A DNA stretch of 64,000 bases from Ruditapes philippinarum (GCF_026571515.1 NW_026851649.1:1-64000), one strand, 5' to 3'. Shown: positions 1 through 24,831, counted from the first letter of the stretch. Made by a program: numbers and translations. The notes: generated by a model from the letters alone, not told the origin.

Positions 1-107
1 AATATAACATTTTTAAAAGCAAAAAATTCTTAAAGAGGAGATAACTCTTGAATTAAAGATGCAATTTCATAAAAAAATTTCAGCTCTTTTTGACTAATCA
101 CAAATAA

Positions 108-795: not shown

Positions 796-796
796 G

Positions 797-3135: not shown

Positions 3136-3578
3136 CAATATGTTAATTTCTATATTTAAGTTTGAAAGATTACAATGTATACCAAAATATAAACAAAGTT
3201 ACTATGATTTATCATAATTATGTTATTACAGCATTCTTACATATAGTTCCCAAAGCAACTTTCAAATATTATTCTTACAAAGTAGGTTATTAAATGGCAT
3301 ATGTTTGAATGATTTGATACACAATAACTTATAAATTTGAGTTTTTTTTTGTTTGTTTGTTTGTTTGTTTTTTTTTCTTCCAGGATTAATTTTCAAACGT
3401 CATTATCAGACCCCTCAGGCAATATGTATATTTAAGTTTTGAAGGGGCCTTATACACATTGCTACATATCTGATCTATTCAGCTACAGGTCTTTTATGTT
3501 GGGTGTATATTTCCATTTTTTCTTATTGTATAGATTTGAAGGGAATGCTTCAATTGTTGAAGATATTACTCAAACAAA

Positions 3579-4481: not shown

Positions 4482-4639
4482 ATTAACCGATAGATAGCAA
4501 ATATGTGTTTGAACATAAATTATTAAACAAAAAGAAGTGTAAACAAGCAATTATCATAGTATTGCAAGCAATCCATAAGTCCCCTACCGGTTATAACCCC
4601 ATCAACATTCTGAAGGGCCATTTATTGGAAAAGTTCTTT

Positions 4640-5635: not shown

Positions 5636-6272
5636 AACCAACTTGATTTTGATTTCTTTTTTTAAGGTTAAATCAAGTAATCAATAAATACTATAAATGC
5701 AACCTTATAGAAGATATTATTCGCATTTATCATCAGTTTTCAAGAAAAGTCATATGTAACTTATTAAGTTGAGCTGTTTGGAGGAAATCTTCCATTCTTT
5801 TATTATTTTTTTTTGAAAAATTCTAAAGATAAAACTGTCAAGTTTTAGCAACTAGTTTTAGTTTTTAGCAAAATACAAAGCCTTTATTTAGCCTCTTTAT
5901 CATGCAAAACTAAATTAACAAGAGTCATTTATTTCATTTGACTTATCCCATGCATGAATCATGTTGTTTTTGTTTTTTTTAAGTTAAACACAGTTAACAA
6001 TTAACACCCCTCCAAACAAGGAACATGTGCTTTGAAAATTTAACACTCTTAATAATATATTTGAGCTGCGCCATGACAAAACCAACATAGTGCGTTTGCG
6101 CAGCGCAGTCTGATCAGAATCCATGCTGTTTGCAATCAATTTCTCTACTTGTAATAGGGTTTGTAAGCAAACAGCATGGATCCAGCACAGATGCGCAGGG
6201 TGGTCTGGATCCATGCTGGTTGAAAACGCAATATGTTGGTTTTGTGATGGCGTGGCTCAATTATGTACTCAC

Positions 6273-6413
6273 TATTTCTAGAGTTTCAACATCCCCTTTT
6301 ATATCCTCAATAAACTCAGACAGAGTATTGTATATGTCCTCTGCCTGAACCATAGAGCAACTTTCCTGAATCTCACCTCTCTTAATAATATCTTTCACTA
6401 TAGCTATTGGGTC
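6273..6413 (-). CDS. Probable further 3' exon of the same gene
   Basis: Acceptor is TATGTTTTCAG|GAC and donor is GAAATA|GTGAGT. The exon is 141 bp, phase 0. Translation DPIAIVKDIIKRGEIQESCSMVQAEDIYNTLSEFIEDIKGDVETLEI. Confidence 0.4.
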
Positions 6414-6726
6414 CTGAAAACATAATAACACATATAATCATGAAGATGAATATAAATAAGCTCATTAAAAAGTCTTTATTATCATATTCTAAAATCATGA
6501 AAAGTTTAAATAAATTTTATTCTGTAGTGTTTTTAATCTGCTATAAAAACAAAATATCTATAATGGAATATTTAGCATCAGTCATGTTCTAATTGTAAAA
6601 CAGTTCAAGACCCTTTAGAATCAAATAAATTTTCTACATATAGGTCTTACAAAAATGTTGTTTTATCACTGAAAACAGTAAAATAATGCAACCTGAAGTG
6701 AATGTTTTAACTAATTTTTTGTATAC

Positions 6727-6837
6727 CTCATCTTTATCTTCAACACCTGGTTTCCAGCTTATGTATGGTAAAATGTCCACTGTTTCCTTCTCAATGAGAT
6801 CAGCTATGGAAGGAATTATGGAAACATCATGTTCATC
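6727..6837 (-). CDS. Probable further 3' exon of the same gene
   Basis: Acceptor is TTACTATTTTCAG|GAT and donor is GATGAG|GTATAC. The exon is 111 bp, phase 0. Translation DEHDVSIIPSIADLIEKETVDILPYISWKPGVEDKDE. Confidence 0.45.
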
Positions 6838-7639
6838 CTGAAAATAGTAACCAAGACATTTAATTACCAAGCTTAATTTGTACTATTACTCCAGATACAT
6901 ATAGTAGAGTTCTATATGACTAAAAGCCTTAGATAATAACAGTGTTCCCCTTTAAAAGTTCTGTTAAAGGGATTCCACTGAGGGTGTTTTTTTGACGATA
7001 TTGAAAATCATTTCTCTAGAATCTATTTGATGTAGGTCTATACTAATCAATAGGGATGGCAACGAATACCAAAATCAATACTCGAGTACTCGGTCATTTT
7101 TCCGATCGAGTACTCGGTTACTCGGATGATTTCCAATGATCTCACGATATCAACACCGTCTGCATGCTACTTTCGTTTTCTATTTTAATTCATAGAATTC
7201 GTAACTATAAATAGGACTGCAAGAAATACATATATAAATATAAACATAAGAAATGTCAATGGCAACATTTATTATATACCTTCAAATTTTCTCCCTAAAA
7301 TACAGGATGAACTTGAAGCGCAAATACGCTTCAACGGATAGAAAATTCCGTATTATGGTTAGTGACAAATACGGTACGATATATGGAAGTGCCGGACTAT
7401 TTTTGACGTTGGTTCCGATCTTAGCTGTGTATAAACGTAGCATTTGGAAACGGAAACCAAAATTATAAAAGGCGTGTACGGTTTTGCAAAATTACGTATT
7501 CATCCGTTGGTCATAAATTTATTTCTCGACAGCTACATTTCATTTTCTGAAACTTCTTATAGAAGTGAAGTTTAATGAAAATCATTTATAATTCAAACGA
7601 AAAGGTATATAACAAGAGCTGTCAGAAGGACAGCGCGCT

Positions 7640-8530
7640 CGACTTTTTTAGTGCTTGCCTATAAAACAAAACTTTGACAGTTAAGGGCACACAAGACTTT
7701 AACTAGGAATTTCTAAGTACAAATCAAGAAACATTTTCACAGAGTTATCTTCTCTTGCTTACAGATAGGTCTCATGATGGCACATAAGAACTCCAACTTC
7801 CAAAGTAATATCTCAAATGGTTAAGTCAACAAGTGGACAAGAATGAAAATCTTAACTGAGTTTCTAAGTCAAAAAGGGCCATAATTCAAATAAAATCCTT
7901 AACAGAATTACCTTCTCCTGCCCATGTTTTGGGACCATGATGGTAAACAAGTATTCCAACTTTCAAATTAATATCTCAAACAGTTCAGTCAAAAAGTGGA
8001 CTGGTACTAAAAACTTAACCAAGATTCTAAGTCGATAAAAGGCCTTAATTTTTAAAACAAATCCTTGACAGAGTTACCTTCTCTTGCGTACAGATGGGGG
8101 TAATGATGTGAAATAGCATTAAAAGTTTCAAAGCAATATCTCAAAGGGTTAAGGCAATAAGTGGATTTTACCCATATTCAATGTATTTTCTAAGTCAAAA
8201 AGGGGCATAATTCTGTCAAAAACCTTGACAGAGTTATGTCCTCTTGTCTGTTGATGAAGGTCGTGATGGTAAACAAGTATGGTCAGTTTCAAAGCAATAC
8301 CTCCAATGGTTTTGAAATAAAGTGAGGTGGTACAAAAAACTTAACCAAGCTCAATACACTTTCTAAGTCAAAAAAGGGCCATAATTCTGTCAAAAACCTT
8401 GACAGAGTTATGTACTCTTGTCTGTAGATGGAGGTTATGATGGTGAACAAGTATGGTAAGTTTCAAAGCCATACTTGTAATACTTCTGAAATAAAGTGGG
8501 GTGGTACGAAAAACTTAACCAAGGTGTGAC
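7640..8530. repeat. Internal tandem array of the hAT element, ~166-bp monomer (about 5 copies)
   Basis: Marker CTAAGTC(A/G)A(A/T)AAAGGGCC recurs at about 7865, 8029, 8190 and 8362. Confidence 0.8.
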
Positions 8531-8534
8531 GCCA

Positions 8535-8572
8535 ACGCCGACGCTAACGCCGACGCCGACGCCGGGGCGAGT
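8535..8572. repeat. (GACGCC)n-like hexanucleotide microsatellite
   Basis: GACGCCAACGCCGACGCTAACGCCGACGCCGACGCC read directly. Confidence 0.85.
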
Positions 8573-9461
8573 AGGATAGCTCCCCTTTTCATAGAAAAGT
8601 CGAGCTAATAAAAGGACAAATATGTTGTAGCCTATGCATTTTTCTACTCGCAATGTTGGAAAATTGATATTTCGCTCGACCTTCGGTCTCGTAAGATATC
8701 AATTTTTCCACCACGTTTATACAATTAACAAGTTTCGGCTACAAACTGTCTAATAGTTAAAGGTGGTTAAATATCATAAGAGGCCGAATGACGTAAACGA
8801 CACAGGACTGGGTTCAATCCCATACGCGTGTCAAAATGCTGATCGCATCGTTAAACTTACGATATCATATTCACACCTCTGGAAGGATGTTTTGATTGCA
8901 CTTAACAAGTATTTATACAATAGATACGTGTACATTTCCGAATTTCTGAACTAATCTTTCTAAATGGCAAAAAAAAGTAGAAATTATTAATTTTTTTTTT
9001 CGAGTAATCGAATATCAATTTTGTTAACCGATATTCGGACATTCGATCGAGTACTCGGTTAATCGGTTACTCGTTGCCATCCCTACTAATCAAATAATTT
9101 CTGTGCAAAATTTCAGATCATTCCCTCACTCAGCTTTCCAGAATATATATTCTATTTGTGAAGATTGACCCAAGTTTGAGAACTGTTTCAATGCTTTTCA
9201 CTCAATTTTGGCTATGAATAGCACTAAAATATGATTCCTTGTTTATTTCTGAGTATATTTCTTAATTATCTTTTGCATTTAAGTGCCCAAGCTGATCTAT
9301 GTAAGAAATTCAAACTTTATGTTTTGACATATTTGGGATTCAGTGGAGTTACTTTAAATGTAAAAACGTCAAACAATAATAATCAGAATAATAATCTTAA
9401 TATTTGACAGAGTTCAAAACACATGGTAGTTTAAAGAAATTGTGTTTTCACACAATATTAC

Positions 9462-9563
9462 CTGATGCCTGTCCTCTATTGCCACAAAGCTGGTGTATGG
9501 AGTCACTATACTGTGTTTCTTACTCAAGTCAATGATGTACTGTTTCCTCTCATTTTTGATCAC
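9462..9563 (-). CDS. PARP4-like exon (C-terminal region)
   Basis: Acceptor is CACTTACTAG|GTG and donor is CATCAG|GTAATA. The exon is 102 bp. Translation VIKNERKQYIIDLSKKHSIVTPYTSFVAIEDRHQ. The VTPYTSFVAIED motif resembles the VTPLTSMV segment conserved after the VWA domain in the ITIH/VWA5A family. Confidence 0.6.
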
Positions 9564-10115
9564 CTAGTAAGTGAAAAGAATGATAGATAAAATCTTATGT
9601 CAAATTGTGATGAAATTTTCATCGAAACAAATTACAAATTATAAGATGCTGTATAAATCTAAATGGCCATGATGGACCTATCAATGCTAACCTTTAGAGA
9701 AAACTACCTTGCTTATGTTCAATAGAATGTAAACATAATCTGAGCATAAATCAACAAGATACCGTATTTGCATTTAACAACCCCCCCCCCCCCTACTAGC
9801 GCCACAAACCACATATTATAGAAGAAAAAGATCTTAAAATCTTACCTTATAGATTTATAAACCATGATGAATGAGCAATTAACAAAAAACAATTAAGGAC
9901 ACTCCATTAATGTTAAATCATTATAAAAGATAATCCTGTATTATATATATAATCATAATATTCAATGATTTTTTTAATTGAATTGTAACTTAAATTAACA
10001 TATTTTGAAGCATATTTTTATAACCACGACAAAATACGTGCATGACCATGCCATACCATTGTAACTGAGTCGCAAAAGCAGCACAGCAATGTGATATACA
10101 TGTAAATAGATTTAC

Positions 10116-10196
10116 CTGATGTTTGATCCTGTCATCGTCCAGGGTTCCATTCTCATAGTCTGTAATCACTGCCCTAGCTGTTAACTGATGTAACAT
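10116..10196 (-). CDS. PARP4-like exon (C-terminal region; acceptor ambiguous between 10196 and 10184)
   Basis: Donor is CATCAG|GTAAAT. Translation ...LTARAVITDYENGTLDDDRIKHQ. Confidence 0.45.
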
Positions 10197-10482
10197 CTGT
10201 AACATGTTTTATATATTAATATAAAATGAATAGCTTTAAACATTTCAATCAAAAACCACATTCATAAAAAACATAAATGTAGTTTTCTAACAGTGAGTCA
10301 CCAGATTATTGTAGTTCATACACAGACAATGCATAAAAATATATAAGGATGTAACAGCAGACTTTTATTTTATACACATGCAATGCATAGAATTATCCAA
10401 AGATGTAACATAAAAAGGAATATATAATAAAGTTAAGAATAAATTAAATATATTTAAGGTCAATTAGCATGAAGAAAATGCA

Positions 10483-10760
10483 ACAGTCGCTGTGGTGTAG
10501 TGGTTAGTATACTGGACCGGCAATCCAGACACCCGTGGTTCAAGTTCCTGCTGTGCCCAGCCAACTTTTCATGTGACTTTTCTGTCTGTGTATATATATA
10601 TGTGTACAGGCTCCTTACAACAAAATTATACCTTCCTTAAGTGGGCTAGATAGCTTCCTCACATGAAAGAAGTCCATGATGGGATTCCAACCAACAGCTG
10701 CGAAAGAACAAATGATTTGAAGGCAACAAACTTAACCGCTCAGCCAAGGAGGTCCTAATG
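10483..10760 (+). mobile_element. tRNA-derived SINE
   Basis: The 5' head GTCGCTGTGGTGTAGTGGTTAGTATACTGGAC...GTGGTTCAAGTTCC carries tRNA A-box and B-box-like motifs, but does not fold as an intact tRNA. Confidence 0.5.
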
Positions 10761-10855
10761 ATATTGCTGGTTCTTTATTTGATAAAAAGTTTTATCATAT
10801 AAGATCATGACAACTTTGTATTACAGCAACATTAAACAGGTGAAATAAAACTTAC

Positions 10856-10936
10856 TGTTCCAGTTGTTATATTGAGATCCACAGTTGACACCATTGTAGA
10901 TATTTCATTATTACCAACCTTGGCCTTTAGTGTTGC
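10856..10936 (-). CDS. PARP4-like exon (C-terminal region)
   Basis: Acceptor is TTATTTTCAG|GCA and donor is GGAACA|GTAAGT. The exon is 81 bp. Translation ATLKAKVGNNEISTMVSTVDLNITTGT. Confidence 0.5.
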
Positions 10937-11433
10937 CTGAAAATAACATTAATATTGTGCAATATTGGGCTTTCTTTAATATATCTAATGTGTATTATGA
11001 GCTTTCCTATTTGGTAATAAATAAGTTTGTTAAAGGAACACCATTTAGTTTTTTTTTTTTAACATAACATGACTGAATATATTTGGGTATCATTTTATGT
11101 AGGTCTGGACCATTAACTTTTAACTGAAATCAATTTTAGTATAGCATAAAATATCAATTTTAGATTTAATTCAGAGTATCTTTCTATTACCAAGGGGCAT
11201 AACTCTAAACATATAGCTTTCATTATAGTGTCCCTTGTCTAAACAACTGCACCTTGTCATGATAATAAGTATTTCAAGTTTCATGTTGATTACTTTTAAA
11301 ATGTTTGAATTATGAATTAAATTAAAGTTTTTTGCACAACAACAATGCTGTGATAATAATAGCTTGACTTTTTCTTCAAAACAGACAATCTTAAAATGAA
11401 AATGGAACTGTAAGAAATATATAAAGTTCTCAC

Positions 11434-11704
11434 TTGAGTGCAGCTCTCTACAAATCCATACACAACTTGCCGACAACCACTAAATAAACAAGGGATATGA
11501 ATTGGTGCTTGTGTTGGAGGTGTAGCTTTGTCATTGGTCTGCATCCAATCAACATGCACGTTAGTTAAACTTAGTTGGCATGCCTTTTCAAGCTGTGAGA
11601 GTAGTTTCCCTTTCCACTGAGATTTAGTATCAGGATTAAAATGTTGATATGTACCGCCACTTACAGATGAAATACTCCGCAACAAATGATGATTTACTGT
11701 CGAG
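11434..11704 (-). CDS. PARP4-like exon: post-VWA region
   Basis: Acceptor is TTCTTTTAG|C and donor is ACTCAA|GTGAGA. The entry phase (1 nt) completes AGC with the upstream exon. Translation STVNHHLLRSISSVSGGTYQHFNPDTKSQWKGKLLSQLEKACQLSLTNVHVDWMQTNDKATPPTQAPIHIPCLFSGCRQVVYGFVESCTQ. Confidence 0.6.
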
Positions 11705-12129
11705 CTAAAAGAACATGAGGCAATAAAAGTCACGTTTAATACTGTTCAAAATTCACATGCAAGTGGCAAATAACTCCATAAATAGAAGCCAAAGAGCAAC
11801 ATGTTGTGTCCAATAGCAATGGTTGGGGGAGGGGGGGGGGGGGGTGTTAACAACTGTGGCTATATGAAAACAGTGGCTATATGAAAACAGAGGTTTATGC
11901 AATATCTATTTCTTAAAAATTTACTTCTGAATTGTTGAGAAATTCAATATCCACTTACACACACAATGGTTGTAATTATTTCCATGCACATATCTGCCAT
12001 TCAGATAACTAAGTTTTCAATACCCATAAGGGTTCTTACACTGAAATCATTATTGCAGTGTTAATATCAGGGATGGTATTACAAGTACAGATCTTGAAAC
12101 AGTAAAATTAAAGAGAAACACAAAAATAC

Positions 12130-12335
12130 CTGACTCCAAGTGAAAAAATTCTGATTTGCTGAGAAGTTTTCTGAGCAGCCAATAGAATTGAAGATTCCTG
12201 AGTCACATGACCATCAGAGATGAGAAAGAGATTCAGGCAGCTTTGATCAGCAGACGACACTGTAGCAGACGACAATATCTGTGTAGCATGAAGAGGCTCT
12301 AACAATTCTGTGGAACCTAAATTTGCAGACGCTAC
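12130..12335 (-). CDS. PARP4-like exon: VWA domain
   Basis: Acceptor is CATTTACAG|GTA and donor is GTCAG|GTATTT. Translation VASANLGSTELLEPLHATQILSS...LNLFLISDGHVTQESSILLAAQKTSQQIRIFSLGV. The LGSTELLEPL, FLISDGHV and IRIFSLGVG motifs are typical of VWA. Confidence 0.7.
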
Positions 12336-12640
12336 CTGTAAATGAGATACAGTAATCAGTGTTACCTTTACATTGCATACATTTTTTAGCAAAGAAGTAA
12401 TTGACAAAAATTTACCAAATATTTAAAAACTATATGACATATTATATGCCCGACATTTTTCTATTTTTTAAGTTCTATTTAATAGTAAAAGAAAATTATT
12501 TGCTTCAATTTTAGTGTAAATATAAGAGTAAGCACTGTATTGATCGAATTGTGTCAAATGTCTTTAGAACAACCTTCCAGAAATCATGACTACAGTGCAA
12601 TTACAAATATAAAACACTGCCATCTTGCCAAAAATATTAC

Positions 12641-12781
12641 CTGGATGAACTGTTTCGCCAACTGAGAGGAGAAGTTGTTACATGATTGAGGAGATGGAAA
12701 CAATTCTTTATATGTACTACCAAACACAACCAAGTTGAATTTGCACTGCAGCGGTAAATTGTCTATAGCTAACAGGGCCAC
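12641..12781 (-). CDS. PARP4-like exon: VWA domain
   Basis: Acceptor is CTATTTCAG|GTG and donor is ATCCAG|GTAATA. Translation VALLAIDNLPLQCKFNLVVFGSTYKELFPSPQSCNNFSSQLAKQFIQ matches human VWA5A TLILLLKSLPIGCYFNIYGFGSSYEACFPESV. Confidence 0.7.
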
Positions 12782-13317
12782 CTGAAATAGATCAACATTC
12801 ATTGCTTTATAGTTTTAGTTCATGATAAACACATATACAATGTATATTAGAAAAGACAATTATCTCAGTATGTCTGAAAATTAAAACTGGTTGGACAGTT
12901 ATTTATCATGAAATCATACTGAAAACAAAATCATAAATTTTACATTAAGAACTCTTGTATATCCTACCAGTTAACACTTAACCTGCTCAATTTGTGTAAC
13001 TGATTTGCCCAGCTTTAAATTTGAAACAGTCCATTCTAAGTTAAAGGGATTAACATATCAAAAAGACAAAATACAAAGAATTGAGCTACTGAATATACAG
13101 ATCCTGGTCAGACTACAAGGATGTGCCAGGCTTGCCTGGTTCTATACCGGTGACATCGGCTAGTCAGTTTTAGTTCAAGCAGGTTAAGAGTCTTAAAAAT
13201 ATACCATAGGAGAAACATATATATTTTTAGTAGGTAAAAAGTAGAATTTACAATATTTTCCACCATAATTATTCATAAAAACAAATAAAGACATAAAAGA
13301 TTCAATCATGTATTTAC

Positions 13318-13437
13318 CTTCTTGGCCTGTTCCTCAGGTTGGCCTTTCATTGAATTAGACATGTCTAACAGAATAATAATGTTAGCCTCAGTCACAGACT
13401 GTGTCTCAAATTCAGGGTAGAATGTCAGCATACATGC
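13318..13437 (-). CDS. PARP4-like exon: VWA domain start (MIDAS-like DxSxS)
   Basis: Acceptor is TATTACAG|GCA and donor is AAGAAG|GTAAAT. Translation ACMLTFYPEFETQSVTEANIIILLDMSNSMKGQPEEQAKK. ILLDMSNSM is the VWA motif hhhlDxSGSM. Confidence 0.7.
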
Positions 13438-13984
13438 CTGTAATACAAACATGATATACTCAATTCATAAATTAATGTAATACTATACTGTGGTATATTT
13501 TCCTATAGGTAGTGTAGACCAAGAGCTAAACCTTTTAAGAAAATAATCCCCTGAACATATTTATTGATCTAAATATCCATCAAAATGCACCTCTGACAAT
13601 CCAGAGCCAAAAATTAGCATCTTGGGGTGCATGCCCCAGACCTCTACCCCATATAATTCAACATTCCTGTAAATTTAAAATAAGCTATGCCCCTCCTGTA
13701 ATTTTGTTTAAATGTAACAGTAAAGTTTTGCTATATTGGTATAGTCCTAAAAGATAACAACCTTTAGTGTTGAAGATACAGCTCAAATCACTACATATGC
13801 GTGCATAATCTAAACCAAAAGATGAACAACATGCAATTTGAAGCCAAAAATTTTAACTTGTCTGCCAATAATTCATTTTCAAACATTTCTTATCTTTTGA
13901 AAATGACAAAGTTTGTTCTATCTTAAGGTAATTTTCTTGTCTACAAAGTTAAAATGGAAATAACACTAGACTAAAATGTCTTAC

Positions 13985-14119
13985 CTGAGTATTTTCTGTA
14001 GGATGTTTCTCCACCCACATTCTAGGAACATGGATTTCAGCCAGGTATATATACAGCTGGAAACCTTCATCAAATCTGCTCCTTCTGGGAAGGGAGACAA
14101 CTGCTTTTGTTGCTGTTTT
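13985..14119 (-). CDS. PARP4-like exon: VIT-VWA linker
   Basis: Acceptor is AATTCCAG|AAA and donor is ACTCAG|GTAAGA. The exon is 135 bp. Translation KTATKAVVSLPRRSRFDEGFQLYIYLAEIHVPRMWVEKHPTENTQ. A second frame is also open; this one was chosen by phase continuity with the neighbouring exons. Confidence 0.5.
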
Positions 14120-14431
14120 CTGGAATTATAAAGTGAGGAATCAGTAAGTTATATCCATTTCCCTGCTTCCATAACCTTTACCCTGCCAAATTTCTTAAAT
14201 GGATTTGTCCAACTTTGATTTCTAGAACTGTCCATCACCAATTTAAAGAATATTAAGATGTAGATTGAAGTTAGTCAGCCAACCTTTAAATGCCTCGTTC
14301 CGGCAGATTATGGGTTAAACCATTAATCGGTTAAACCATTATTATATTTTACAATATTTGGTGACTATTCAAGGACCAACTTTAATTGCAATTAATATAT
14401 TCAAAATTTAAAAAGAAGCTATCATAATTAC

Positions 14432-14554
14432 CTTCCACTTGACCCTGTGGGATGGTGAAAATATTCTCCTAATGTCAAATGGCATCTCTATGGCAACCAT
14501 TAGAGAAATGTCACATCTCTTGTTGTCAGACACTTTAACAGATTCAGTTGTTGC
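14432..14554 (-). CDS. PARP4-like exon: VIT-VWA region
   Basis: Acceptor is TTCACAG|GCA and donor is GGAAG|GTAATT. Translation ATTESVKVSDNKRCDISLMVAIEMPFDIRRIFSPSHRVKWK. Length 123 bp, phase 0 at both ends. Confidence 0.6.
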
Positions 14555-14989
14555 CTGTGAACATAGAAAATATATAATTTCTATACCAATCAATGTTGAT
14601 GAAAATAAAGAATGCCATTCTTAGCTTTATTAATGAAAAATGGAAATCAGAATAAACATCAAATAATATCAAAACACGAAACCGTACCAATCTGGACAAA
14701 ATCATTAGTCATAATTATGGGAAAATTTCGAAGTATTTACTGACTGAAAAGAGAACCAGCAGACCATGATCAGACAGCATGGCTGGGCAGGCTAACCTTG
14801 GTCAGCACTGGTTGCACAGGTAGAATATGTTGCCACCAGCAGGGTAAGTTATTTTTACTTATTCAATAAATGAAGGTAAATATCAATAATATTGATGCTA
14901 TTTGTTACACTAAGATAATAATTGCTACGTAATTTCTGCTTTATATGAAATTGACTACTACCCTCATGATGAATATATTTGGATGTTTG

Positions 14990-15240
14990 TTTTTTCTGGT
15001 TTTTACTACGATTTTAACACATATTTTGGTCATCACTTCTTTGTGGTCAGACTGTTCAACAGGCTTTTCTGGAAAAATTCCCAGTAATTACCAATTTTTT
15101 CACAACTTACTGACTACTAATCCTGAATGATAATGCTTTCCAAATGATTATTAGACTCAATGTCTGGGTTCAATTGTCACGGACAAATTACGCCTTGACC
15201 AAGGATCAAACTAGCCACCCCTAGATTTTTAATTTAATGC
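14990..15240 (+). mobile_element. SINE family S2, truncated copy
   Basis: The body aligns with 15700-15930 and 21360-21590. Confidence 0.45.
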
Positions 15241-15311
15241 TTTCTCTACAGTGGGACAGACTGGTCCTCAAATATTGATTTATTTCTATAGAAAAAAAAT
15301 GATTTAATCAC

Positions 15312-15476
15312 CTGTGTCTTCTGTGACAGAGCTCCATCTCGTAACCATGGAGCTACTGAAGCTGGAATAGTGAATGCAATTGCCTCCCCTTGGACCTGCA
15401 GCTCTGAGATGTATGTGATCTTGATGAGGACGTCACATTTAGGAGGTAAATTACCAACACTGACTGAGAATACATC
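15312..15476 (-). CDS. PARP4-like exon: VIT domain core
   Basis: Acceptor is TTCTTTTTCAG|GAT and donor is ACACAG|GTGATT. Translation DVFSVSVGNLPPKCDVLIKITYISELQVQGEAIAFTIPASVAPWLRDGALSQKTQ carries the VGNLPP...IKITY...P..VAPW signature of VIT domains in VWA5A/ITIH/PARP4. Confidence 0.75.
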
Positions 15477-15534
15477 CTGAAAAAGAAAATGTTTCAATTA
15501 TGAATTGATAATTCCCCTCTGAAAGAAATTAAAA

Positions 15535-15930
15535 GGGTGGCATGGCTGAGTAGTAAACACTCCAGACTAGTAATATAATGATTGTCAGCTGTGTGGGTTC
15601 AAACTCCATCAGGGGCAAGCCATCGTTTCCAATTAAACTAAAACAAATTTTGTATTATTTTGCATAATCATCTGTGAAAGCAAATTCTTTTTACTTTGTT
15701 TTTTTTCTGCTTTTTAACCCAATTTTGGTAATATTTTGGTGGAAAATCCATTTTCTGAATTTCCTGGATTTCTAAAGAGTAACTACCAATTTTTCTGCAA
15801 GTGACCGACCACTAATTACACATGATTTCTGAATCAGATGTGAGGGATAAATGATGATGAGACTTTATGTCTGAGATCAATTGTAATGGAAAAATTTCAC
15901 CTAGCCCTAGGATTGAATCAGTAACCCTTG
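15535..15930 (+). mobile_element. tRNA-derived SINE, family S2
   Basis: The head GGCATGGCTGAGTAGTAAACACTCC...GTGGGTTCAAACTCCATCAGGGG has A/B boxes. Its body shares TTTTCTGCAAGTGACCGACCA(C/A)TAAT...CATGATTTCTGAATCAG(A/C)TGTGAG(G/A)GA(T/C)AAATGA with 21380-21560 and 14990-15240. Confidence 0.55.
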
Positions 15931-16064
15931 GATTACTTTTATCCGTCACATGGTTAGCAGCAAAACAAAACTACATAAAAACGCTGTTTAATCGGGGAAA
16001 AGTAAGAATTAAACCATTTAAATAATCTAAAAACATGATCAAAGCAGGATAAATCAAATACGTA

Positions 16065-16186
16065 GTTGATGTCTGGATAGGAGAAGGTTTATCCGGTTTG
16101 CTGTGAAAGTGAATCTTGGCTCGCTAAAGCTCGCCAAGATACACTTTCTCGCTCACCGGATAAACCTTCTCCATCCCAACATCAAC
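16065..16186. mobile_element. Palindromic MITE (~120 bp) with ~33-bp TIRs
   Basis: GTTGATGTCTGGATAGGAGAAGGTTTATCCGGT at the left end pairs with ACCGGATAAACCTTCTCCATCCCAACATCAAC at the right end. Confidence 0.7.
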
Positions 16187-16278
16187 CATGTATTCTCTAT
16201 ATCCAACACTCTCCTCCTTGAGTTAAGATGGCAGATTTCTATATTTAGAATGTGATATAAAACACAGATAATTCTTAC

Positions 16279-16370
16279 AGGTGTCTCTTCTTCCATTAGG
16301 TATGCCCCATCACCCCTGGCAACAGCTTCTTTATATTCCTTCCTAGCTTTACTCTTCTCTTTAACTTCAC
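16279..16370 (-). CDS. PARP4-like exon: VIT domain
   Basis: Acceptor is TTTTGTAG|GT and donor is ACACCT|GTAAGA. Translation (G)EVKEKSKARKEYKEAVARGDGAYLMEEETP is the conserved VIT motif K.EYE.A...G.AyLLEe. The 1+2 split codon with the upstream exon closes as GGT. Confidence 0.7.
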
Positions 16371-16755
16371 CTACAAAATGTTAAATGGAAAAATCAATCA
16401 GTAAATCATTTTTACCATTTCAATTTTTGGAATTCTATCATAGCAACTTAAGGTCTTGTCAGTTGAAAATACATATTTTAAAACCTAGAATTACGATATG
16501 AGCTGCCTGAAAGTGTTGATATAAAAGTTGATTACTTCAAATAACTTAACACATTATCAACAAAACAATTATCATGTTATCATTATCATGTTTTCCTAGG
16601 TAAAGCTATCCTTAAATGATTCTTAACCATCAAGTAAATTTACTTTCAGCAATTAATGGGGCCAATCCATCATGGAAACTGCTTGAGTTGGTTGAATTTT
16701 TAGGATTTTATTTCTGAATTATTGTAACTCTTATCAACAATTTTTTAATGTATAC

Positions 16756-16882
16756 CTATCACATGTTTTCCGTTAATGAAAGCCTCAAATCCACATACTG
16801 CTGCTGTATCATCCAATGGGAACACATACTTGGCCTCTATAGCAGTTGTACTGTCATTTCTGTATGCTTGTAGAACCACAAC
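16756..16882 (-). CDS. PARP4-like exon: VIT domain start
   Basis: Acceptor is TATTGATAG|GTT and donor is GTGATAG|GTATAC. Translation VVVLQAYRNDSTTAIEAKYVFPLDDTAAVCGFEAFINGKHVI(G) matches human VWA5A VSATLNYENEEKVPLEAFFVFPMDEDSAVYSFEALVDGKKIV. Confidence 0.75.
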
Positions 16883-16918
16883 CTATCAATATATAAAAGA
16901 TATAGAGAATAATAGGTT

Positions 16919-17035
16919 GGTGCCATGGATTGAGAAAGTTTATCTGGCGAGGCGGAGGAATTTATTGGGGTCGCCTTCGGCTCACCCAATAAATTCCGGA
17001 GCAGAGCCAGATAAACTTTCTCCATCCACGACACC
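16919..17035. mobile_element. Palindromic MITE, same family as 16065-16186
   Basis: GGTGCCATGGATTGAGAAAGTTTATCTGGC at the left pairs with GCCAGATAAACTTTCTCCATCCACGACACC at the right. The core GGAT(A/G)GAGAA(G/A)GTTTATC(C/T)GG is shared with the first copy. Confidence 0.7.
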
Positions 17036-17924
17036 AATCTATTATTCTACTTATCCTGTCACCGTTTTTTTTAAAGAATTTTATTAGGCAAACTACCTTT
17101 AATCACACTATCGGAAAATGTTTCTATATAAACAAAGAAGGCCCGAAGCGTGCATTATTCTACAACAATGCACTCGCCGTTCTTATTATCTCCCTGTGTA
17201 TTTTTACATCGAGGGCGCCATTTTGTTTGAAAAATGTGATAAATAAAAACATTTTTTTGTTGAATTTTGTTGTGAAAACTATCTAGAATGAAAGAAAATG
17301 GTCTAACTAAGAAAATGAATTCGAACAACAATATCTTTTATTGAGTCGTTAACGCTGTACAGACGTTTAAAGTATTGTTTACGTGACGTCATAATGTAGC
17401 GCAAAACAGCACGTGTCAAACAATCTAATCAACTATTTATATGCTGCAAACGAGTAAGTTTTACAATTATTTCACTTTTAATAATTTGTATTTCGCTTGA
17501 AAAATTATAGAGTGAAATAAAATAAACAAAGTTTTATCAACATTTCCAAAATTCGTTATTCTACACACAGAAGATTTAACGACAGTTTTTATATTTTTTT
17601 CTTGAAAAGTAGTCCGGCAAACATGCATACCACATTATCAAGTGCCGTAGATCAGTAAAAATATACGGCACCTTGTTATCGGGCCGAAATTGATACAAGT
17701 GACAGGATAAAAACTATTATATAACAGATAAACCTAAAATGACTGGATGGGAACCCCAGGACTTCAGAACATGATGTTGACTGGGCAGCTGATAAACAAA
17801 CACATGATAATGCTGTCTCAATTTAAACATTATTCATTTTAATTTGTCAGTTTGTTTCTAGGAACTAACAAGTACTGTTGACATAAGAAGAAACATGGTT
17901 GTGGCCCCTGTATGGGCTCAAACC

Positions 17925-18610
17925 TCATTTACACCATGCCATATAGCTTTACCCCATGCCAAAAAGCTTTATATCATACCATATTTCCCTACACCATTCC
18001 ATATAGCTTTACATTATGCCATACAGCTTTACACTATACCATATTGCTTTACACTATGCCATATAGCTTTACACTATGCCATACAGCTTTACACCATGCC
18101 ATATAGCTTTACACTATGCCATATAGCTTTACCCATACCATGTAGCTTTACACCACGCCATATAGCTTAACACCATGTCATATAGCTTTACTCCATGCCA
18201 TATAGTTTTACTCCATGCCATATAGCTTTACACCATATAGCTTTACTCCATGCCATATAGCTTTACACTATGCCATATAGCTTTACTCCATACCATGTAG
18301 CTTTACACCATGCCATATAGCTTAACACTATGTCATATAGCTTTACTCCATGCCATATAGTTTTACTCCATGCCATATAGCTTCACACAATATAGCTTTA
18401 CTCCATGCCATTGCCATTTAGCTTTATCCCATGCCATACAGTCCATGTCATATTTCTTCATATCATGCCATATTTCTTTATCCCTTGCCATATAACTGTA
18501 CACCATGCCATATAGCTTAATCCCATGCCATATTGCTTTATCCCATGTCATATAGCCCATGCCATATTTCTTAATATCATGCCATATTTCTTTTAACCAT
18601 GCCATGTAAC
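17925..18610. repeat. 21-bp minisatellite, consensus CATGCCATATAGCTTTACAC(C/T), about 32 copies
   Basis: Direct tandem repetition, period 21. The periodicity produces the spurious ORFs 17895-18170, 17912-18106 and 18363-18605. Confidence 0.9.
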
Positions 18611-18766
18611 CTTACATGAGTTAAGAGGGTTTGCACACATCACATTATTTCTTAATAATTAATTATGACCAAAACTTTATACTTTTGCATACTGAAAGAC
18701 AAGAATGTATCCTGCATAAAAATAATTCAGATAATGATTTTTATGGTAATATAATAATATACAAAC

Positions 18767-18897
18767 CTTGGCCACCATGTCCATCATTTTTCCTCTGATA
18801 TGTACACTTTTAAGAGGGATATGTTCCTTCTTGTTACCTTGTAATCCTGCTTTAACCTTGGCAAGAGGATCTTGAACATCTTTAATATCTGAGATAT
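18767..18897 (-). CDS. PARP4-like exon: linker into the VIT domain
   Basis: Acceptor is CCTTTTAG|AT and donor is GCCAAG|GTTTGT. Translation (D)ISDIKDVQDPLAKVKAGLQGNKKEHIPLKSVHIRGKMMDMVAK. HIPLKS matches human VWA5A PVPLKS. The phase fits both neighbouring exons. Confidence 0.6.
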
Positions 18898-19437
18898 CTA
18901 AAAGGGAAATAACCTATGTGTTTCTTCTAAAATTATGCAATACAAATACATCTTAATGTGAAATCTTCTGAAATGTATGGGTAACAATCTCGTTTTACTT
19001 AAAATTTAGATAATCTTACTTTTGTATCACCGAAACAATCTGAGATTATGTAAAAATGAAACAATCTACATAAACTGAATAATCTGAAATTATCTAAAAT
19101 GAAGTTTGATTCTTTGTGTGAATCTAATATATGCAAATTAGGTTTCTACTGTATTTCCCGCCATTTACAAGTGAAATTTACAACAAAAGAAGTTTGATAT
19201 ATATATTTATATGAATGTTGTAAAGTCTACTATATGAATGTTGATAAGTCTACTTAGTTACTAGACAATGGAAACGTTCATTCTCCAACTAATGTTAACT
19301 GGATATTTTGTGCTTAAAACTTTTGTTCATGTACCATGATATTGTATATTCAATATGCTATACAAATATATGTTGTAAAGACTATGTACTAAACGTCAAT
19401 AAATCATTTATCTATCTATAATAATGAATTCACTTAC

Positions 19438-19621
19438 CAATATCAGTATTTGAAGAAGTCTGAGGTTGAGTGTCCTGATTTGTGACCTCTAAACCTTTCA
19501 GTACCTGTAGATCTCCATCTCTTATAGTTGGGTGTTCTGTAATATTGTCTCCCGGTAGAGAAAACTCAACCAGGTATTTCACACACTGTTGACTTGGGTT
19601 GTATATAACAAATTCATTATC
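19438..19621 (-). CDS. PARP4-like exon: end of catalytic domain (Glu of triad) plus linker
   Basis: Acceptor is TTGTTTTAG|GAT and donor is GATATTG|GTAAGTG. Translation DNEFVIYNPSQQCVKYLVEFSLPG... matches the PARP signature [22 protein letters not shown]. Confidence 0.7.
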
Positions 19622-20317
19622 CTAAAACAAACAATTTTAAGGTTTAAATGGGTATGCTTCCATAAACATGTTGCATAAAATATATCTTCAAGAATCAAAC
19701 TTAAGAAAAATATAATTCTAACTTAAACAAGAGTGTTAATGCAGTGCTAATGCTCTAGTGTAAAAAATCTCAAGTTAAAAAAAATAACTCCAAAAATATT
19801 TTTTCAGAATTATGCGCCTTGTCTTACCACTGCACATTGTCATAATTGTCCTAATAAGAAAATATTCTAAGTTTTATGTAAATAATTTGAAAATTGATAT
19901 AATGGGCTAAATTTATGTTTTTGCAACAAAGACAACAACACCACAGTAATCAAAAGCTCAACATTTCTTTGAAACAGACAAGCTTAAAATGTATAAATAT
20001 TCATATCCCAAGTGAAACTTTGAACCTATGATGAAAAATTACTTATATGGTTTCTATATCACATTATATCCTATACAGTTCTAAAAAGCACTGATCTGAT
20101 TGGCTGATAAGCATTGATGTCACAAGTTTGCAAGACTACTTGTAGACCCCTAAGATATGTAGACTTGATGGTCATTTCCACATATAACTGCAAGCAAGTC
20201 AAAATATCCTGAAATATCCTGAAGTCAAAACTTCCTTGAGTCAAAACATCCCAAAAACACAATGTTTTGACAATATATCATATAAAATAACAGCCAAAAA
20301 CTTATCCTTAATATTAC

Positions 20318-20501
20318 CTCAAATGAGCTCTGGTTGTCATTTGATGATTTCACACCTTGTACACAGTCAAAACCTTCAGGGGCTGATGTAATAGTGAAGT
20401 CAGTCTGGTACATTTTACAACAGTGTCCTAGAGATACGTTACACAGCAACATAAACCTAGTACCAGTCTGGGAATTTGCTGTAGAGTACTGGGAGCTTTT
20501 T
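20318..20501 (-). CDS. PARP4-like exon: catalytic domain
   Basis: Acceptor is TTATTTCAG|A and donor is TTTGAG|GTAATA. Translation KSSQYSTANSQTGTRFMLLCNVSLGHCCKMYQTDFTITSAPEGFDCVQGVKSSNDNQSSFE matches PARP1 [25 protein letters not shown]...VPLGTGISSGVNDTSL. Confidence 0.7.
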
Positions 20502-21117
20502 CTGAAATAATTTTGAAATACACATGTATATTATTTGATTTTTGATGGGTTATATGGCCATAAACAAAAGCTGCCATTAAGACAGCATACTTGACTATTC
20601 TCAGCGCTTGATAGTAAAACAAGACCTAAAAAAGAGTCAAAATTTTAACAAAATCCATGTTAAGAGTTATTGGCCTTAATCAGTGGCCTTCTATAATGCT
20701 CTAAAATAAGCGTGCAAGTTTTTAACCCATCTCTTATAGTAGTTTTGGAGATACAAACTTCACCAAAGATGACGCTGCCACTGACCCTGGGATGAATTCA
20801 ATAGCTCTCCCTATTCTCTGAATAATTGAGCTAAAGCATCTAAAGCATCTATTTCTCTATGGCAACTTCTGCAACAAGTGCTTGAGTAAGACAGTGTGCC
20901 AAGTTAAGAGTATGGACCTTGGTCAGTGACCTCCTATTATACTCTCAAATAAGTGAGTGAAGTTTCAACTCATTCCCTTCAATAGTTAAGGAGATACTAA
21001 ATTGCACACAAAAATTAACAAGAGTGTGATGCAGACAACAAGGCCTTGGTGAGTACAATAGCTCTCCCTATTTTTTAAATTTTATCGAGTTAAAAAGAGA
21101 TATGACTGTAAACTTAC

Positions 21118-21216
21118 CCAGGATTATCTGAGAAGTATATCCCAGCACCAAGGTTTCCAACATCTGTTCTTGCAACACCCATTTTGTCTGCTACCATATT
21201 GGGCATTAATAAACCC
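21118..21216 (-). CDS. PARP4-like exon: catalytic domain (Tyr of triad, GIYFSD)
   Basis: Acceptor is GTTTGTTTACAG|GGG and donor is CCTGG|GTAAGT. Translation (R)GLLMPNMVADKMGVARTDVGNLGAGIYFSDNPG matches PARP1 [29 protein letters not shown]. Phases join the neighbouring exons. Confidence 0.7.
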
Positions 21217-21329
21217 CTGTAAACAAACAATGATTTACTGAAAAAACATATTTCACTACTCTTTATGTACAGGTCAATTATACTACATGTATAACAAAGA
21301 GCCACAAATATCTTCTTTTATGATCCTGC

Positions 21330-21595
21330 ACAAACAGTTTATTATTGGTATTTTTGTTTGTTTTTCTGTTCATAAGGCCAATTTTACATATGTGTGGTCA
21401 TTTTTCAACAAACACCCACCGAACAGGACTTTTCTGGATAACTAACAAGTAGTCAAAAATTTCTCTGCAAGTGACTGACCAATAATCATCCATGATTTCT
21501 GAATCAGCTGTGAGAGACAAATGACTGTTAGACTCAATTGTCACATTGACTTAGGATCCAACAAGCATCCCCATGAATACTAATCAGATGCTCTC
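21330..21595 (+). mobile_element. SINE family S2, copy
   Basis: The body aligns with 15700-15930. Confidence 0.5.
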
Positions 21596-22338
21596 CCTAT
21601 TGAGCTTTTTGATAATAGGTAAAAGCATGAACAATCAAATCGATATTGCTATTCAATCTCCCTCCCTTCGTCTACATTCTAGAATTTTTATATTCAACAA
21701 AGCAGGTGATGCCCCATACTTCACCAGATTTGTGAAATTGTTTTCTCTGGTTTTCTGGATCATTGGTTCCAAATACTTACAGTGTTGACGGGGTGTGAGT
21801 GATTTGCACACTTGCCCCAAAGTTTGGAAATTTGCTAAATGTATTTCAAATGCAGTCTAAAGCTTGTTTCAATAAAAACTGCAACAATAAAGACATTATT
21901 ATTGAATTAATGCATTATAATTAAACATATTACAGCTTAAAGTACATTTAATATACATTTAGCAAATGATTAAACTGAGAGGGAAATGTCGACTTTACAT
22001 TTCCATGGGGGGAGGGCAAAATTTTAATTGATGCATTTTTTTACTGCAGGGAGTGGGTGGGTATCAAGTGTCCTGGAGGGCAAATGTCCCGTATATCTGA
22101 CAATAACTGAATCTTGTAATGAAGAGTTTATAATATCAGAAAACTGATTATTACACTGTCCCCTAACTTGAGCATTATAATGGGTATGCTAGTGGAAAAT
22201 AAAAATTTAGCTTCTATAATTAAAAAAAATTCCTACTGTTTTCTTTCTTAATGGACATCGCACAAGACATAAATTAAAATGGTACTGAATCTAAAACACA
22301 AAATGATAAAATAAAACTGTCTCAAATATTCAGCAAAC

Positions 22339-22634
22339 CTTGACAAAATTCCAAGCATGTTGTGACAGGGTGAAGCATGACTCAGCAGATTTATATTTCC
22401 CACATCCGACATAAAGTTCACCTCTTCCACAGTCCGCCTGACTCTGTATAAACCATGTATCTTTCCTCTATCTTTAGCTAGCTTCTCTTCCAAGATCTTG
22501 TAAATTTCTGCTGAGTCAGCATCAGACTGGTTTACATATTTTATATGACATCCCATGGCTCTGTATTTAGCAATAACTGTAGTATCAGGGGACCAGTCTG
22601 TGGCTTTACTTACAGCAACAATATCTGATAAAAG
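22339..22634 (-). CDS. PARP4-like exon: PARP catalytic domain N-part (His of catalytic triad)
   Basis: Acceptor is GGGTTTTTATTTTGGACAG|CTT and donor is TCAAG|GTTTGC. Translation includes IKYVNQSDADSAEIYKILEEKLAKDRGKIHGLYRVRRTVEEVNFMSDVGNINLLSHASPCHNMLGILS. This matches PARP1 IKVVDRDSEEAEIIRKYV...[20 protein letters not shown]. Confidence 0.7.
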
Positions 22635-23183
22635 CTGTCCAAAATAAAAACCCAAATTATGTCCAGACAGGTCTTGACTGTAAATGATTTTCAATTAACT
22701 GAATTATTTATAACCTAACTTACATGAATAAACTTTAAAGTCACTTCAAAAACATTAAGCTGGAAGAAAAAGTCATCAATTTTGTCCCAAAATGATAAAA
22801 AAAATTTGCATCATAAGTTGCGTTATTGAGTGTTCTAACATTTTTGCATGCACAAAGCGTTTTACACACTATAGCCATAACTGTTTGAGAAAGACTCCAG
22901 GTGTATTTCTACAATTCCACAATATATGTGTAAGGCAATGCCACTCCCAGTTTGTGAGTTTAACAACCACATTATTATAGACAACTTCTTTATTCAACTT
23001 ATCACAAGTTTAAAATGTTAACCTTTTATAAGGGAGGGCCCACACTAATGCTAATATAACTTTCAGCTCAACCCTTTTTTGTATATTGCATAAAAGTACA
23101 CACGGTTAGATAACAAATAAAATATTTTTTTAACTTTCTTGAGACATATGTACATATATTGCATAACAAGACTTAGCTTTTAC

Positions 23184-23360
23184 CTGACAAAGGTCCTGTT
23201 TACCAATGACTTCTCTTAAAGTCCAATCACTTGACTTCTTAAATTGTTCTTTATGAGGCAAAACCTCATAAAATTCTTCTATAAGCTTGTCCATATCATC
23301 ATCATAGTTGCCTAGTAACTTATCCGTTAATTGAGACAGTATCACTTTCGCTTCAATTAT
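23184..23360 (-). CDS. PARP4-like exon: PARP regulatory (helical) domain
   Basis: Acceptor is TCTCTTGTAG|ATA and donor is TGTCAG|GTAAAA. Translation IIEAKVILSQLTDKLLGNYDDDMDKLIEEFYEVLPHKEQFKKSSDWTLREVIGKQDLCQ. The FYEVLPH motif matches PARP1 FYTLIPH. Length 177 bp, phase 0 at both ends. Confidence 0.6.
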
Positions 23361-24689
23361 CTACAAGAGATAAATAACATTTAGAGTTAAAGTGACATTA
23401 TGCCCATCAAAGTGTAAATGAACAGGTAAAATCAAAGTTACTTGACATTTTGCCATAATCGTGTTCAACCTTTTACTTGTCTATAAAAAACGAATTAATA
23501 ATTCAGGTGACCAACTGAAATTACTGTAAATATAGTTCAGAATATATCAGTAATTTTCAATTCTTAAGAGGAGTGCGGCAGTCTTTTTATAAATAAGGTC
23601 ATTTTTATATTTGCATCATAAACATTTTTCATTATCCATCATTGGTCAATCAACATTATAATAGTCATTCTTTTGAAATATATAACTTATATGAATTAAT
23701 AAAACTTATACTTAATTAACTGAAAAACCAGAAAAAAAGCAAAGATTCATACGGAACTCTTAAAATGGCATCATGTTATAAATTTTTCATACGGCAATAT
23801 ACTGACCCCTTAATTTGAATAGTTATGTCCCAAATATAAAAAAAACCCCAGAAATTCATGTCAGGAAAAAGCGTTATCCTAAAGTTGAAATCCCAATTTA
23901 TATTTTCACATTCCAAACCTGTTTCTTAATAATGCAATATATGGTCCCCACAAAAATTTAGGTTTCACCCATATTAAGTTACCCACCCCCCCCACTCCTG
24001 TTTTTTTTGGAACAGGGACCCTGAAAAATATTATCTAGATAAAATCAACCCCTCTATGTATGTAAACCAAAATCTAATCCCACATACTGAACACCCCAGA
24101 TCTTAAAACTCACTCTGCTTATTTATGTAAACCTTTAAAAACTATGAGACCTTTTTGTCTTAAACAAAACCACTTGCAATTCTTTCTCTTTTGGTTCCTT
24201 AAGACTTTGACTGGATCTTAACCAAAAATTTTTCTCTGTAAAAATACTTCTTTAGAGTTTCCAAGATGGATCAACCTCTGTCAGGGCCTCATTCCAGACT
24301 ATTGAAGTGAGTGCTGCCACCTGGGGGGAAATTTCTTCATTCAAGAGAGATAACTTTCCTATTTTCTATAAAGAACAATGAAAACAAACAACAATTAATC
24401 TTTTAAGAAATCTCTTTTTACAAAAGGCTTACTTCTTATTCAATTTTATGGATAGAAAAGTAAGTTATTATTTTTTGTCAAAAATCTGTAGAGAACAATA
24501 TCTCAGAAAAAAACAAAACTTTTAAGAGTTTTTCTTATAGCTTGAATGAGTTTAACAATCAAAGTAGGACAAAGTGAAAAATTACTAACAGCACAAGAAA
24601 GCATTTACTTACTGAAATTGACATTAATTATACAATGTTCGAAAATTGAAATAAAAATTGTACCATTCTTAAAGTAGCAGATCCAAAGT

Positions 24690-24831
24690 CTTGCACATCT
24701 ACTGATCCTGGTTTACAAGGAACCATACACACAGGTTTGTTGGCATATTGTCTATACAACTGCTCATAACCACTCAGTACCTCCGACACCGTCTGAAAGT
24801 ACCAGACTATTGCCTCGTCTATTTTCACCAC
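24690..24831 (-). CDS. PARP4-like exon: BRCT domain C-terminal part (3' boundary uncertain)
   Basis: Acceptor is TATTGTCAG|GTGGTG. Translation VVKIDEAIVWYFQTVSEVLSGYEQLYRQY resembles the human PARP4 BRCT end HVHIANPDFIWKSIREKRLLDVKNYDPY. Confidence 0.35.

Follow-up and report, generated by a model that had tools for sequence, protein, structure and literature searches.

In vertebrates PARP4 resides in vault particles. The MINT domain of the human enzyme (residues 1562-1724) docks it on MVP repeats 3-5 in the vault (PMC12280208). PARP3 and PARP4 possess the His-Tyr-Glu (H-Y-E) catalytic triad yet are mono-ADP-ribosylating enzymes, and in human PARP4 this restriction is ascribed to a disrupted, non-functional acceptor site (Frigon & Pascal 2023 NAR, PMC10711553). 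In this site T484 replaces K903 of PARP1, N471 replaces M890, E544/D545 are placed to clash with the acceptor phosphates, K516 protrudes into the site, and a short loop is without an equivalent of PARP1 H826; mutation of PARP1 K903 to Ala produces a mono-transferase, and PARP3 carries the acceptor-site Lys (K421) and remains a mono-transferase (PMC10711553). The subject of this report is a gene on the minus strand of a 64,000-nucleotide stretch of Ruditapes philippinarum DNA (GCF_026571515.1 NW_026851649.1:1-64000; hereafter the window). With a probability of roughly 0.85 it represents the 5′ two-thirds of an invertebrate PARP4 (vault PARP) ortholog, which probably continues beyond the window, and the product of the enzyme is most likely mono-ADP-ribose.

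The gene consists of 26 exons running from 29187 down to 6273, which join into a single open frame of 1273 codons with zero stops; all 25 introns are of the GT-AG type and range in length from 298 to 2624 nt (median 552). Comparison of the joined protein with Pfam reveals VIT (E-value 7e-39), PARP (3.5e-25), VWA_3 (6e-22), VWA (6.6e-12), and BRCT_2 (3.9e-08); the BRCT, PARP catalytic, VIT, and vWA domains all exceed the curated cut-offs and occur in that order. A phmmer search of the PDB sequences aligned residues 1-1219 with residues 3-1213 of human PARP4 (chain 11jf_P) in one collinear stretch at an E-value of 1.8e-243, the next families being ITIH4 (1.4e-15) and PARP2 (1.7e-12). Every named top database match is PARP4, and in a search of a large protein collection the PARP4 proteins of corals, vertebrates, a crinoid, and Lingula exhibited 44-55% identity. 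The closest full-length relative is a protein of 2293 residues from the freshwater mussel Sinanodonta woodiana (KAL3858028.1, named “hypothetical protein” and, in UniRef, “Poly [ADP-ribose] polymerase”), which is 51% identical and collinear over residues 1-1263; amphioxus ranks second and the bivalve Solemya velum third. By these matches the source would probably be a bivalve that has no close relative in the databases. The full-length relatives came from an exhaustive search of representative sequences for which the Lingula homolog P0122 served as query.

The resulting domain order is BRCT, a WGR-equivalent region, a helical domain, the ADP-ribosyltransferase (ART) fold with His429, Tyr469, and Glu539, a linker of 62 residues, VIT, vWA, and a post-vWA region. 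A PARP4-type gene with a BRCT, helical regulatory region, ART, VIT, and vWA had been proposed in the first-pass annotation of this locus, and both Pfam and the collinear alignment bear this out; when the conceptual protein is set against PARP4 and ITIH sequences alike, it is PARP4 that it matches far better (1.8e-243 vs 1.4e-15). Whether the exons at 27.6-29.2 kb belonged to the gene had been left as a question. They do: the sequence they encode aligns collinearly with human PARP4 from residue 3 and with the Sinanodonta protein from residue 10, and it comprises Met1, the BRCT, and the beginning of the WGR-equivalent region.

The domain order is shared with human PARP4 (PDB 11jf, 9bw6, and 9bw7 for the full length; 8sx1 and 8swy for the catalytic part) over human residues 3-1213, as are H-Y-E, the Asn at N471, the Glu-Asp pair at E544/D545, catalytic loops of human length, and the DxSxS motif of the vWA. 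The Sinanodonta protein possesses the same architecture, including the segment encoded by exon 4 and a DIDI(S/T)D(I/V)K motif in the linker; its gene extends over 162 kb, compared with 23 kb for these 26 exons. PARP1, PARP2, and PARP3 likewise have the N-terminal BRCT-WGR-helical domain-ART layout and the H-Y-E triad, with Lys at K903 or its equivalent, but the similarity is far weaker (PARP2 1.7e-12 vs PARP4 1.8e-243), and the window protein differs from these in being without zinc fingers, in having VIT-vWA after the ART, and in acceptor-site residues of the PARP4 type. Judged by these alignments, the protein is closer to PARP4 than to any other PARP or VIT-vWA family. By analogy with the human enzyme, the BRCT domain would bind RNA or other nucleic acid, the ART fold would bind NAD+ in the donor site and transfer ADP-ribose to protein targets, and the VIT and vWA would mediate protein contacts.

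The VIT plus vWA module also occurs in proteins that have no PARP domain, ITIH1-4 and VWA5A being examples, so that the locus might be read as two genes, one PARP-like and, downstream of it, one ITIH/VWA5A-like; similarity of the vWA part to ITIH chains (E-value 1.4e-15) is indeed detected. ITIH1-4 and VWA5A possess neither BRCT nor PARP, whereas here a single reading frame passes from the ART exons into those of the VIT. Exon 11 (19621-19438) encodes the catalytic Glu, the end of the ART, and the first part of the linker, while exon 12 (18897-18767) completes the linker (DISDIKDVQDPLAKVKAGLQ) and goes on into the initial strands of the VIT; no further exon was assigned between the ART and the VIT. 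The sequence of the ART-VIT junction is conserved in Sinanodonta, and the alignment with human PARP4 runs unbroken across this boundary. Because exons 11 and 12 each bridge two modules and the PARP4 alignment is continuous, a PARP/ITIH split is scarcely credible and in practice excluded.

Acidic residues make up 18% of the linker that connects the final ART strand to the opening VIT strand, Gln 10%, and basic residues 11%. When its borders are drawn somewhat more widely, the linker has 67 residues, as compared with 53-70 in 32 homologs. What had been called a long N-terminal linker is thus of a length within the family range, and its position is between the catalytic and VIT domains rather than N-terminal. 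A local duplication (DIDISDIK) had also been claimed. This octapeptide straddles the exon 11/12 junction, and Sinanodonta carries SDIDITDVKNIQDPLSKVKAGLQG at the same place; conservation of the motif argues against a recent local duplication and backs acceptor 18897 over the alternative at 18888, as does Sinanodonta DIDITDVKNIQDPLSKVKAGLQG. The linker text given earlier, SSNTDIDISDIKDVQD, is correct with acceptor 18897 and incorrect with 18888.

His429 (codon 22379-22377, in LLSHAS), Tyr469 (21137-21135, in GIYFSD), and Glu539 (19615-19613, in FEDNEFVIY) align with the H-Y-E of the human PARP4 crystal-structure sequences, and the claim of an intact triad is thereby confirmed. The His is followed by Ala-Ser (H-A-S), whereas the human sequence is H-G-S (“PLLHGS”). 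Among the PARP4-family sequences scanned there were 34 with HAS, 33 with HGS, and 23 with HSS; judging from these counts the Ala is not odd, and H-A-S is the usual invertebrate form. The prediction that had been drawn from the triad, namely a poly-ADP-ribosylating enzyme rather than a mono-ART, fails, in that human PARP3 and PARP4 have H-Y-E and make mono-ADP-ribose (PMC10711553). Three of the five acceptor-site disruptions are retained in the clam protein: the Glu-Asp pair (FEDNE), the Asn (VGNLG) at the N471 position, and the short loop. The alignment of the catalytic region with human PARP4 contains a single one-residue gap, and the loop is therefore as short as in the human enzyme. Since these three features are kept, and PARP3 is a mono-transferase despite its Lys, we predict by analogy that mono-ADP-ribose is the most likely product. 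The label applied to the orthologs by NCBI is “protein mono-ADP-ribosyltransferase PARP4.”

A number of observations weigh against the reading of this locus as a continuing PARP4 gene with mono-ADP-ribosylating activity, and they concern the acceptor site, the helical domain, a few junctions, and the 3′ end. In the acceptor site the other two of the five features differ from human PARP4, Lys476 (codon 20500-20498, exon 10) standing for T484 and Thr for K516. Lys476 would restore one PARP1-like acceptor contact, and with the K516 equivalent being Thr, it renders mono-only activity uncertain. At this position the PARP4 family has Thr in 94, Ala in 20, and Lys in 2 of 137 sequences, both of the latter being from gastropods (Lottia and Candidula); Sinanodonta has Thr. 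The residue does not depend upon a doubtful splice choice, since acceptor 20501 keeps a Tyr-to-Tyr spacing of 11 residues which is invariant in 137/137 matched family members, and the alternative acceptor at 20495 breaks it. That an intact H-Y-E means synthesis of poly(ADP-ribose) would find some encouragement here: Lys476 occupies the position of the PARP1 residue whose change to Ala turns that enzyme mono (PMC10711553), and so rare a Lys sets this protein apart from nearly all of its family. We nevertheless consider poly(ADP-ribose) synthesis improbable, as human PARP3 and PARP4 combine H-Y-E with mono-ADP-ribosylation, PARP3 moreover with Lys K421, and the clam protein retains the Glu-Asp pair, has Asn where PARP1 has M890, and keeps the short loop in which H826 has no counterpart. 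Lys476 is the sole mildly unusual feature of this PARP4.

The Pfam WGR and PARP_reg profiles find no match in the model, nor in Sinanodonta PARP4, and the WGR-equivalent and helical domains are putatively assigned by collinearity only, with human PARP4 residues 3-569 and with Sinanodonta. Within the helical domain the segment WxEA...FYxxLPH has 43 residues in the model as compared with 59-60 in 37/44 homologs; human PARP4 likewise exceeds the model by 16-17 residues, and Sinanodonta has a full-length segment. The shortfall represents either a missing micro-exon or a lineage deletion. An in-frame TAG (23363-23361) lies directly upstream of the exon 7 acceptor. A 39-nt AG...GT piece on the minus strand (23480-23442; TSKRLNTIMAKCQ) is a candidate micro-exon of low confidence and does not form part of the main model: with it the profile scores 34.7 bits rather than 30.5 (+4.2), and an intron of 81 nt would be left. 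The in-frame text FDGHNVTLTLNVIYLL before exon 7, which appears collinear with homologs, was rejected as coding, because it ends in a stop and because no intron could be accommodated. Junctions 2-3, 5-6, and 6-7 were tentatively placed from homology and splice signals.

This helical-domain gap of 16-17 residues, with a TAG just before exon 7, repeat-rich introns, and a tail that was not found in the window, could be taken as the marks of a decaying PARP4 pseudogene copy. Such decay is very unlikely in a gene which runs through 1273 codons without a stop or frameshift, has canonical splice sites throughout, and retains the catalytic, DxSxS, and other family-invariant motifs.

In the first-pass annotation the uncertainty was placed at the 5′ end. 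That end is settled, and it is the 3′ end, unflagged at the time, that is uncertain. The last coding piece found in the window is exon 26 (6413-6273), which encodes the first helix of the post-“PYxxW” helical region. It falls inside the stretch, ending at model residue 1263, that aligns with Sinanodonta without interruption; searched alone, it gives an E-value of 0.039. A comparison of exon 26 with 14-3-3 proteins yielded no match. The exon, which ends in ...ETLEI, is followed by a GTGAGT donor, and reading through this donor (6272-6264, minus strand) adds VST and a TAA at 6266-6264. There is thus a stop three codons past the exon, and the 400 nt read beyond it contain AATAAA motifs; both count against continuation of the gene, as does the position of a convergent gene on the plus strand which ends at 4478. 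This neighbor (3579-4478) is an intronless gene whose 300-residue product is a syntaxin-like t-SNARE (Pfam SNARE 1.4e-12) bearing a membrane anchor at its C-terminus; the gene is not part of PARP4 and is possibly nested in a PARP4 intron. Directly after the exon 26 stop begins an inverted-arm repeat (…CAGCATGGATCCAG…TGGATCCATGCTG…; 5990-6263, minus strand).

Probably the PARP4 gene extends leftward beyond position 1 of the window via donor 6272, with the syntaxin gene nested in the intron. Sinanodonta PARP4 has approximately 1000 further residues comprising a ubiquitin-like domain (Pfam 2.2e-13), a disordered stretch, and a MINT-like C-terminus, and in all but a few of the 31 top-scoring full-length-like relatives tails of ~100 to >1000 residues extend beyond the matched region. 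The other possibility is that the gene is complete in the window, read-through of donor 6272 to the TAA giving a PARP4 of 1276 residues which is without ubiquitin-like and MINT domains and is not docked in the vault. Besides the stop, the AATAAA motifs, and the syntaxin gene, this is favored by homologs of similar length (P0134, 1267 residues; P0136, 1243 residues) and by the failure to detect a further PARP4 exon in 1-6263. It is unlikely, though not negligibly so: exon 26 ends at a full-consensus GTGAGT donor, the Sinanodonta alignment is still running where the window sequence gives out, in a protein which goes on for ~1000 residues, long tails are found in most relatives, and truncated gene prediction may account for the short database entries. 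It is, furthermore, common for an intronless gene to lie inside an intron.

The search for C-terminal exons below 6264 employed tblastn with 12 homolog tails and returned only noise; queries were taken from the tails of P0121-P0123, of ten full-length relatives, and of Sinanodonta, together with the C-terminus of human PARP4, a sequence that matches a database PARP4 at 2.9e-88. A MINT profile run against the six-frame translation of the window found nothing with an E-value <1, and whereas human PARP4 has its MINT at 1562-1724 and Sinanodonta both a ubiquitin-like domain and a MINT-like C-terminus, none of these is seen in the window. With the Sinanodonta C-terminus not yet part of the model, the iterated MINT profile detects it at 2e-4 and 5.8e-07; a looser iteration also admitted a bacterial VIT protein and was set aside for a stricter rerun. 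Direct phmmer comparison of the C-terminal 195 residues of Sinanodonta with the PDB sequences gave no PARP4 match, so that the link of this C-terminus to MINT, made via the iterated profile only, is proposed with moderate confidence.

The tails of invertebrate PARP4 homologs (P0126, P0127, P0133, P0137, P0135, P0141, and P0123) were found to carry pieces of abundant cytosolic proteins. That of amphioxus contains the C-terminal half of 14-3-3 (E-value 7e-31), for which the match is weak in two other homologs, and four tails contain the first ~55 residues of actin (1e-9 to 1e-12); a piece of the HSP70 substrate-binding region and ubiquitin-like domains also occur. The presence of the actin piece in four different 50%-identity clusters argues against simple gene-fusion errors.

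An outside chance is given to two departures from the reading preferred here: that this PARP4 regained or kept the Lys on which PARP1 and PARP2 depend for chain elongation and could extend ADP-ribose chains, or alternatively that it is a short non-vault PARP4 of 1276 residues.

The window is AT-rich (~25-36% G+C), and the short minus-strand open stretches lying between repeat-rich DNA have the appearance of an animal gene. The exon model was built by setting 25 conserved peptide cores in frame and, for each adjacent pair, enumerating all frame-open GT...AG combinations. Most junctions had one clear solution with good signals; the remainder were decided by length or sequence match to homologs. 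The initial join contained 25 exons and 1238 codons and showed a gap of ~35 residues relative to human PARP4, which led to the location of exon 4 at 25671-25567. This exon had been overlooked in the first-pass annotation, and the exon set given there was thus incomplete. The limits stated in that annotation coincide with the exon 5 acceptor (24831) and the final base of exon 26 (6273). Its statement that splice phases are consistent across 18 junctions stands as to consistency, all being GT-AG in an open frame, and falls short in number, 21 of the 25 junctions lying within 24831-6273.

Exon 1 (29187-29059; all exons are on the minus strand) begins with the ATG at 29187-29185, encodes the first half of the BRCT (MKVFTNCTVV...ILTKK), and ends at the donor AAG/GTATCA. 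It matches Pfam BRCT/BRCT_2 over residues 1-93, and the sequence from Met1 onward, MKVFTNCTVV, is the N-terminus conserved across PARP4 of many species. The second BRCT half and the start of the BRCT-WGR linker are found in exon 2 (28549-28351; acceptor TTTTTCAG, donor AGA/GTAAGA, end in phase 1), which matches several PARP4 homologs by tblastn. Exon 3 (27740-27580), in which the linker gives way to the WGR-equivalent region (...SSYPSFLYGDVNAPEFDEDTFQLPKWALLINK), is collinear with Sinanodonta INLASHPSFLHGDPDGPEFDEGRYELAKWAVL, and acceptor 27740 was preferred because that alignment backs it. The 35 residues of exon 4 correspond to WGR-equivalent strands (ETKKMEALEVHVATRLDCQFRYRLYAQNAQVDNNK) and align with Sinanodonta LVQALEIHAHPSGNLQSGQGKFRLFAQGAVMDKNN; its acceptor is TTGTATTCACAG and its donor AAG/GTACCA, with phase 0-0. 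Exon 5 (24831-24664) completes the WGR-equivalent region (VVKIDEAIVWYFQTVSEVLSGYEQLYRQYANK...) and is supported by tblastn to a coral homolog and by the Sinanodonta alignment, its donor at 24663 being the one that brings the length into line with homologs.

The first helices of the helical or “PARP regulatory” domain are encoded by exon 6 (24365-24276; ...EEISPQVAALTSIVWNEALTE), which has the tblastn match ELSPDVAAFVELLWTEAL and uses the sole phase-0 donor without a stop. All of the motifs quoted in the earlier description were recovered on the minus strand. FYEVLPH falls among the helices of exon 7 (23360-23184), which matches the helical-domain profile with an i-E-value of 8.4e-08 and aligns with the human PARP4 construct 8sx1. 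NLLSHAS is in exon 8 (22634-22339), where the helical domain ends and the ART fold starts, GIYFSD in exon 9 (21216-21118; GVARTDVGNLGAGIYFSD), which also carries the Asn at the human N471 position, and DNEFVIY in exon 11 (19621-19438). Between the latter two, exon 10 (20501-20318) supplies the central ART strands together with Lys476.

Exons 13-15 (16882-16756, 16370-16279, and 15476-15312) encode the VIT, with tblastn identities of 60-80% to PARP4 homologs, and exons 16-17 (14554-14432 and 14119-13985) the region intervening between VIT and vWA (…AEIHVPRMWVEKHP…). The vWA, with its DxSxS motif (LDMSNSM), occupies exons 18-21 (13437-13318, 12781-12641, 12335-12130, and 11704-11434), and is followed in exons 22-24 (10936-10856, 10196-10116, and 9563-9462) by a conserved post-vWA region (…MLHQLTARAVITDYENG…YTSFVAIE…). 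Exon 25 (6837-6727; …PSIADLIEKETVDILPYISWKPGVEDKDE) matches many PARP4 tails by tblastn, with E-values down to 1e-05.

Elsewhere in the window there are copies of non-long-terminal-repeat retrotransposons with open reading frames for reverse transcriptase at 32658-36222, 54196-56492, and 59284-60328, all on the minus strand (RVT_1 2.5e-21 and 1.9e-25); the first of these lies ~3.5 kb upstream of the PARP4 start. Tandem arrays occur at 114-798 (170 bp), 1510-3040 (145/290 bp), 4842-5348 (171 bp), 17928-18605 (20 bp), and 26348-27224 (165 bp), the last two being within PARP4 introns 12 and 3, respectively. The 170- and 171-bp arrays, which flank the 1-5.4 kb region, are related to each other and both end in (GACA/GGAC)n runs. 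Open stretches on the plus strand at 47197-47610 and 49345-49701 have tyrosinase-like text (LPYWDY), with no Pfam match at an E-value ≤0.001, and suggest that another gene may be located there. Rfam and tRNA scans of the 64-kb window gave no matches.

The gene adds a further PARP4 to the known family and is an ordinary invertebrate copy; knowledge of vaults and PARPs is otherwise unchanged by it. The exon model obtained here for an invertebrate PARP4, checked by hand and with an overlooked exon added and the 5′ end fixed, is of modest value. The analysis also corrects a common shortcut, in that an intact H-Y-E alone gives no prediction of poly-ADP-ribose synthesis. Were the short form of 1276 residues to prove true, such a PARP4 would act outside vaults. 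Finally, the presence of Lys at the PARP1 K903 position in a few mollusc PARP4s offers a cheap natural test of the acceptor-site changes that restrict these enzymes to mono-ADP-ribosylation.

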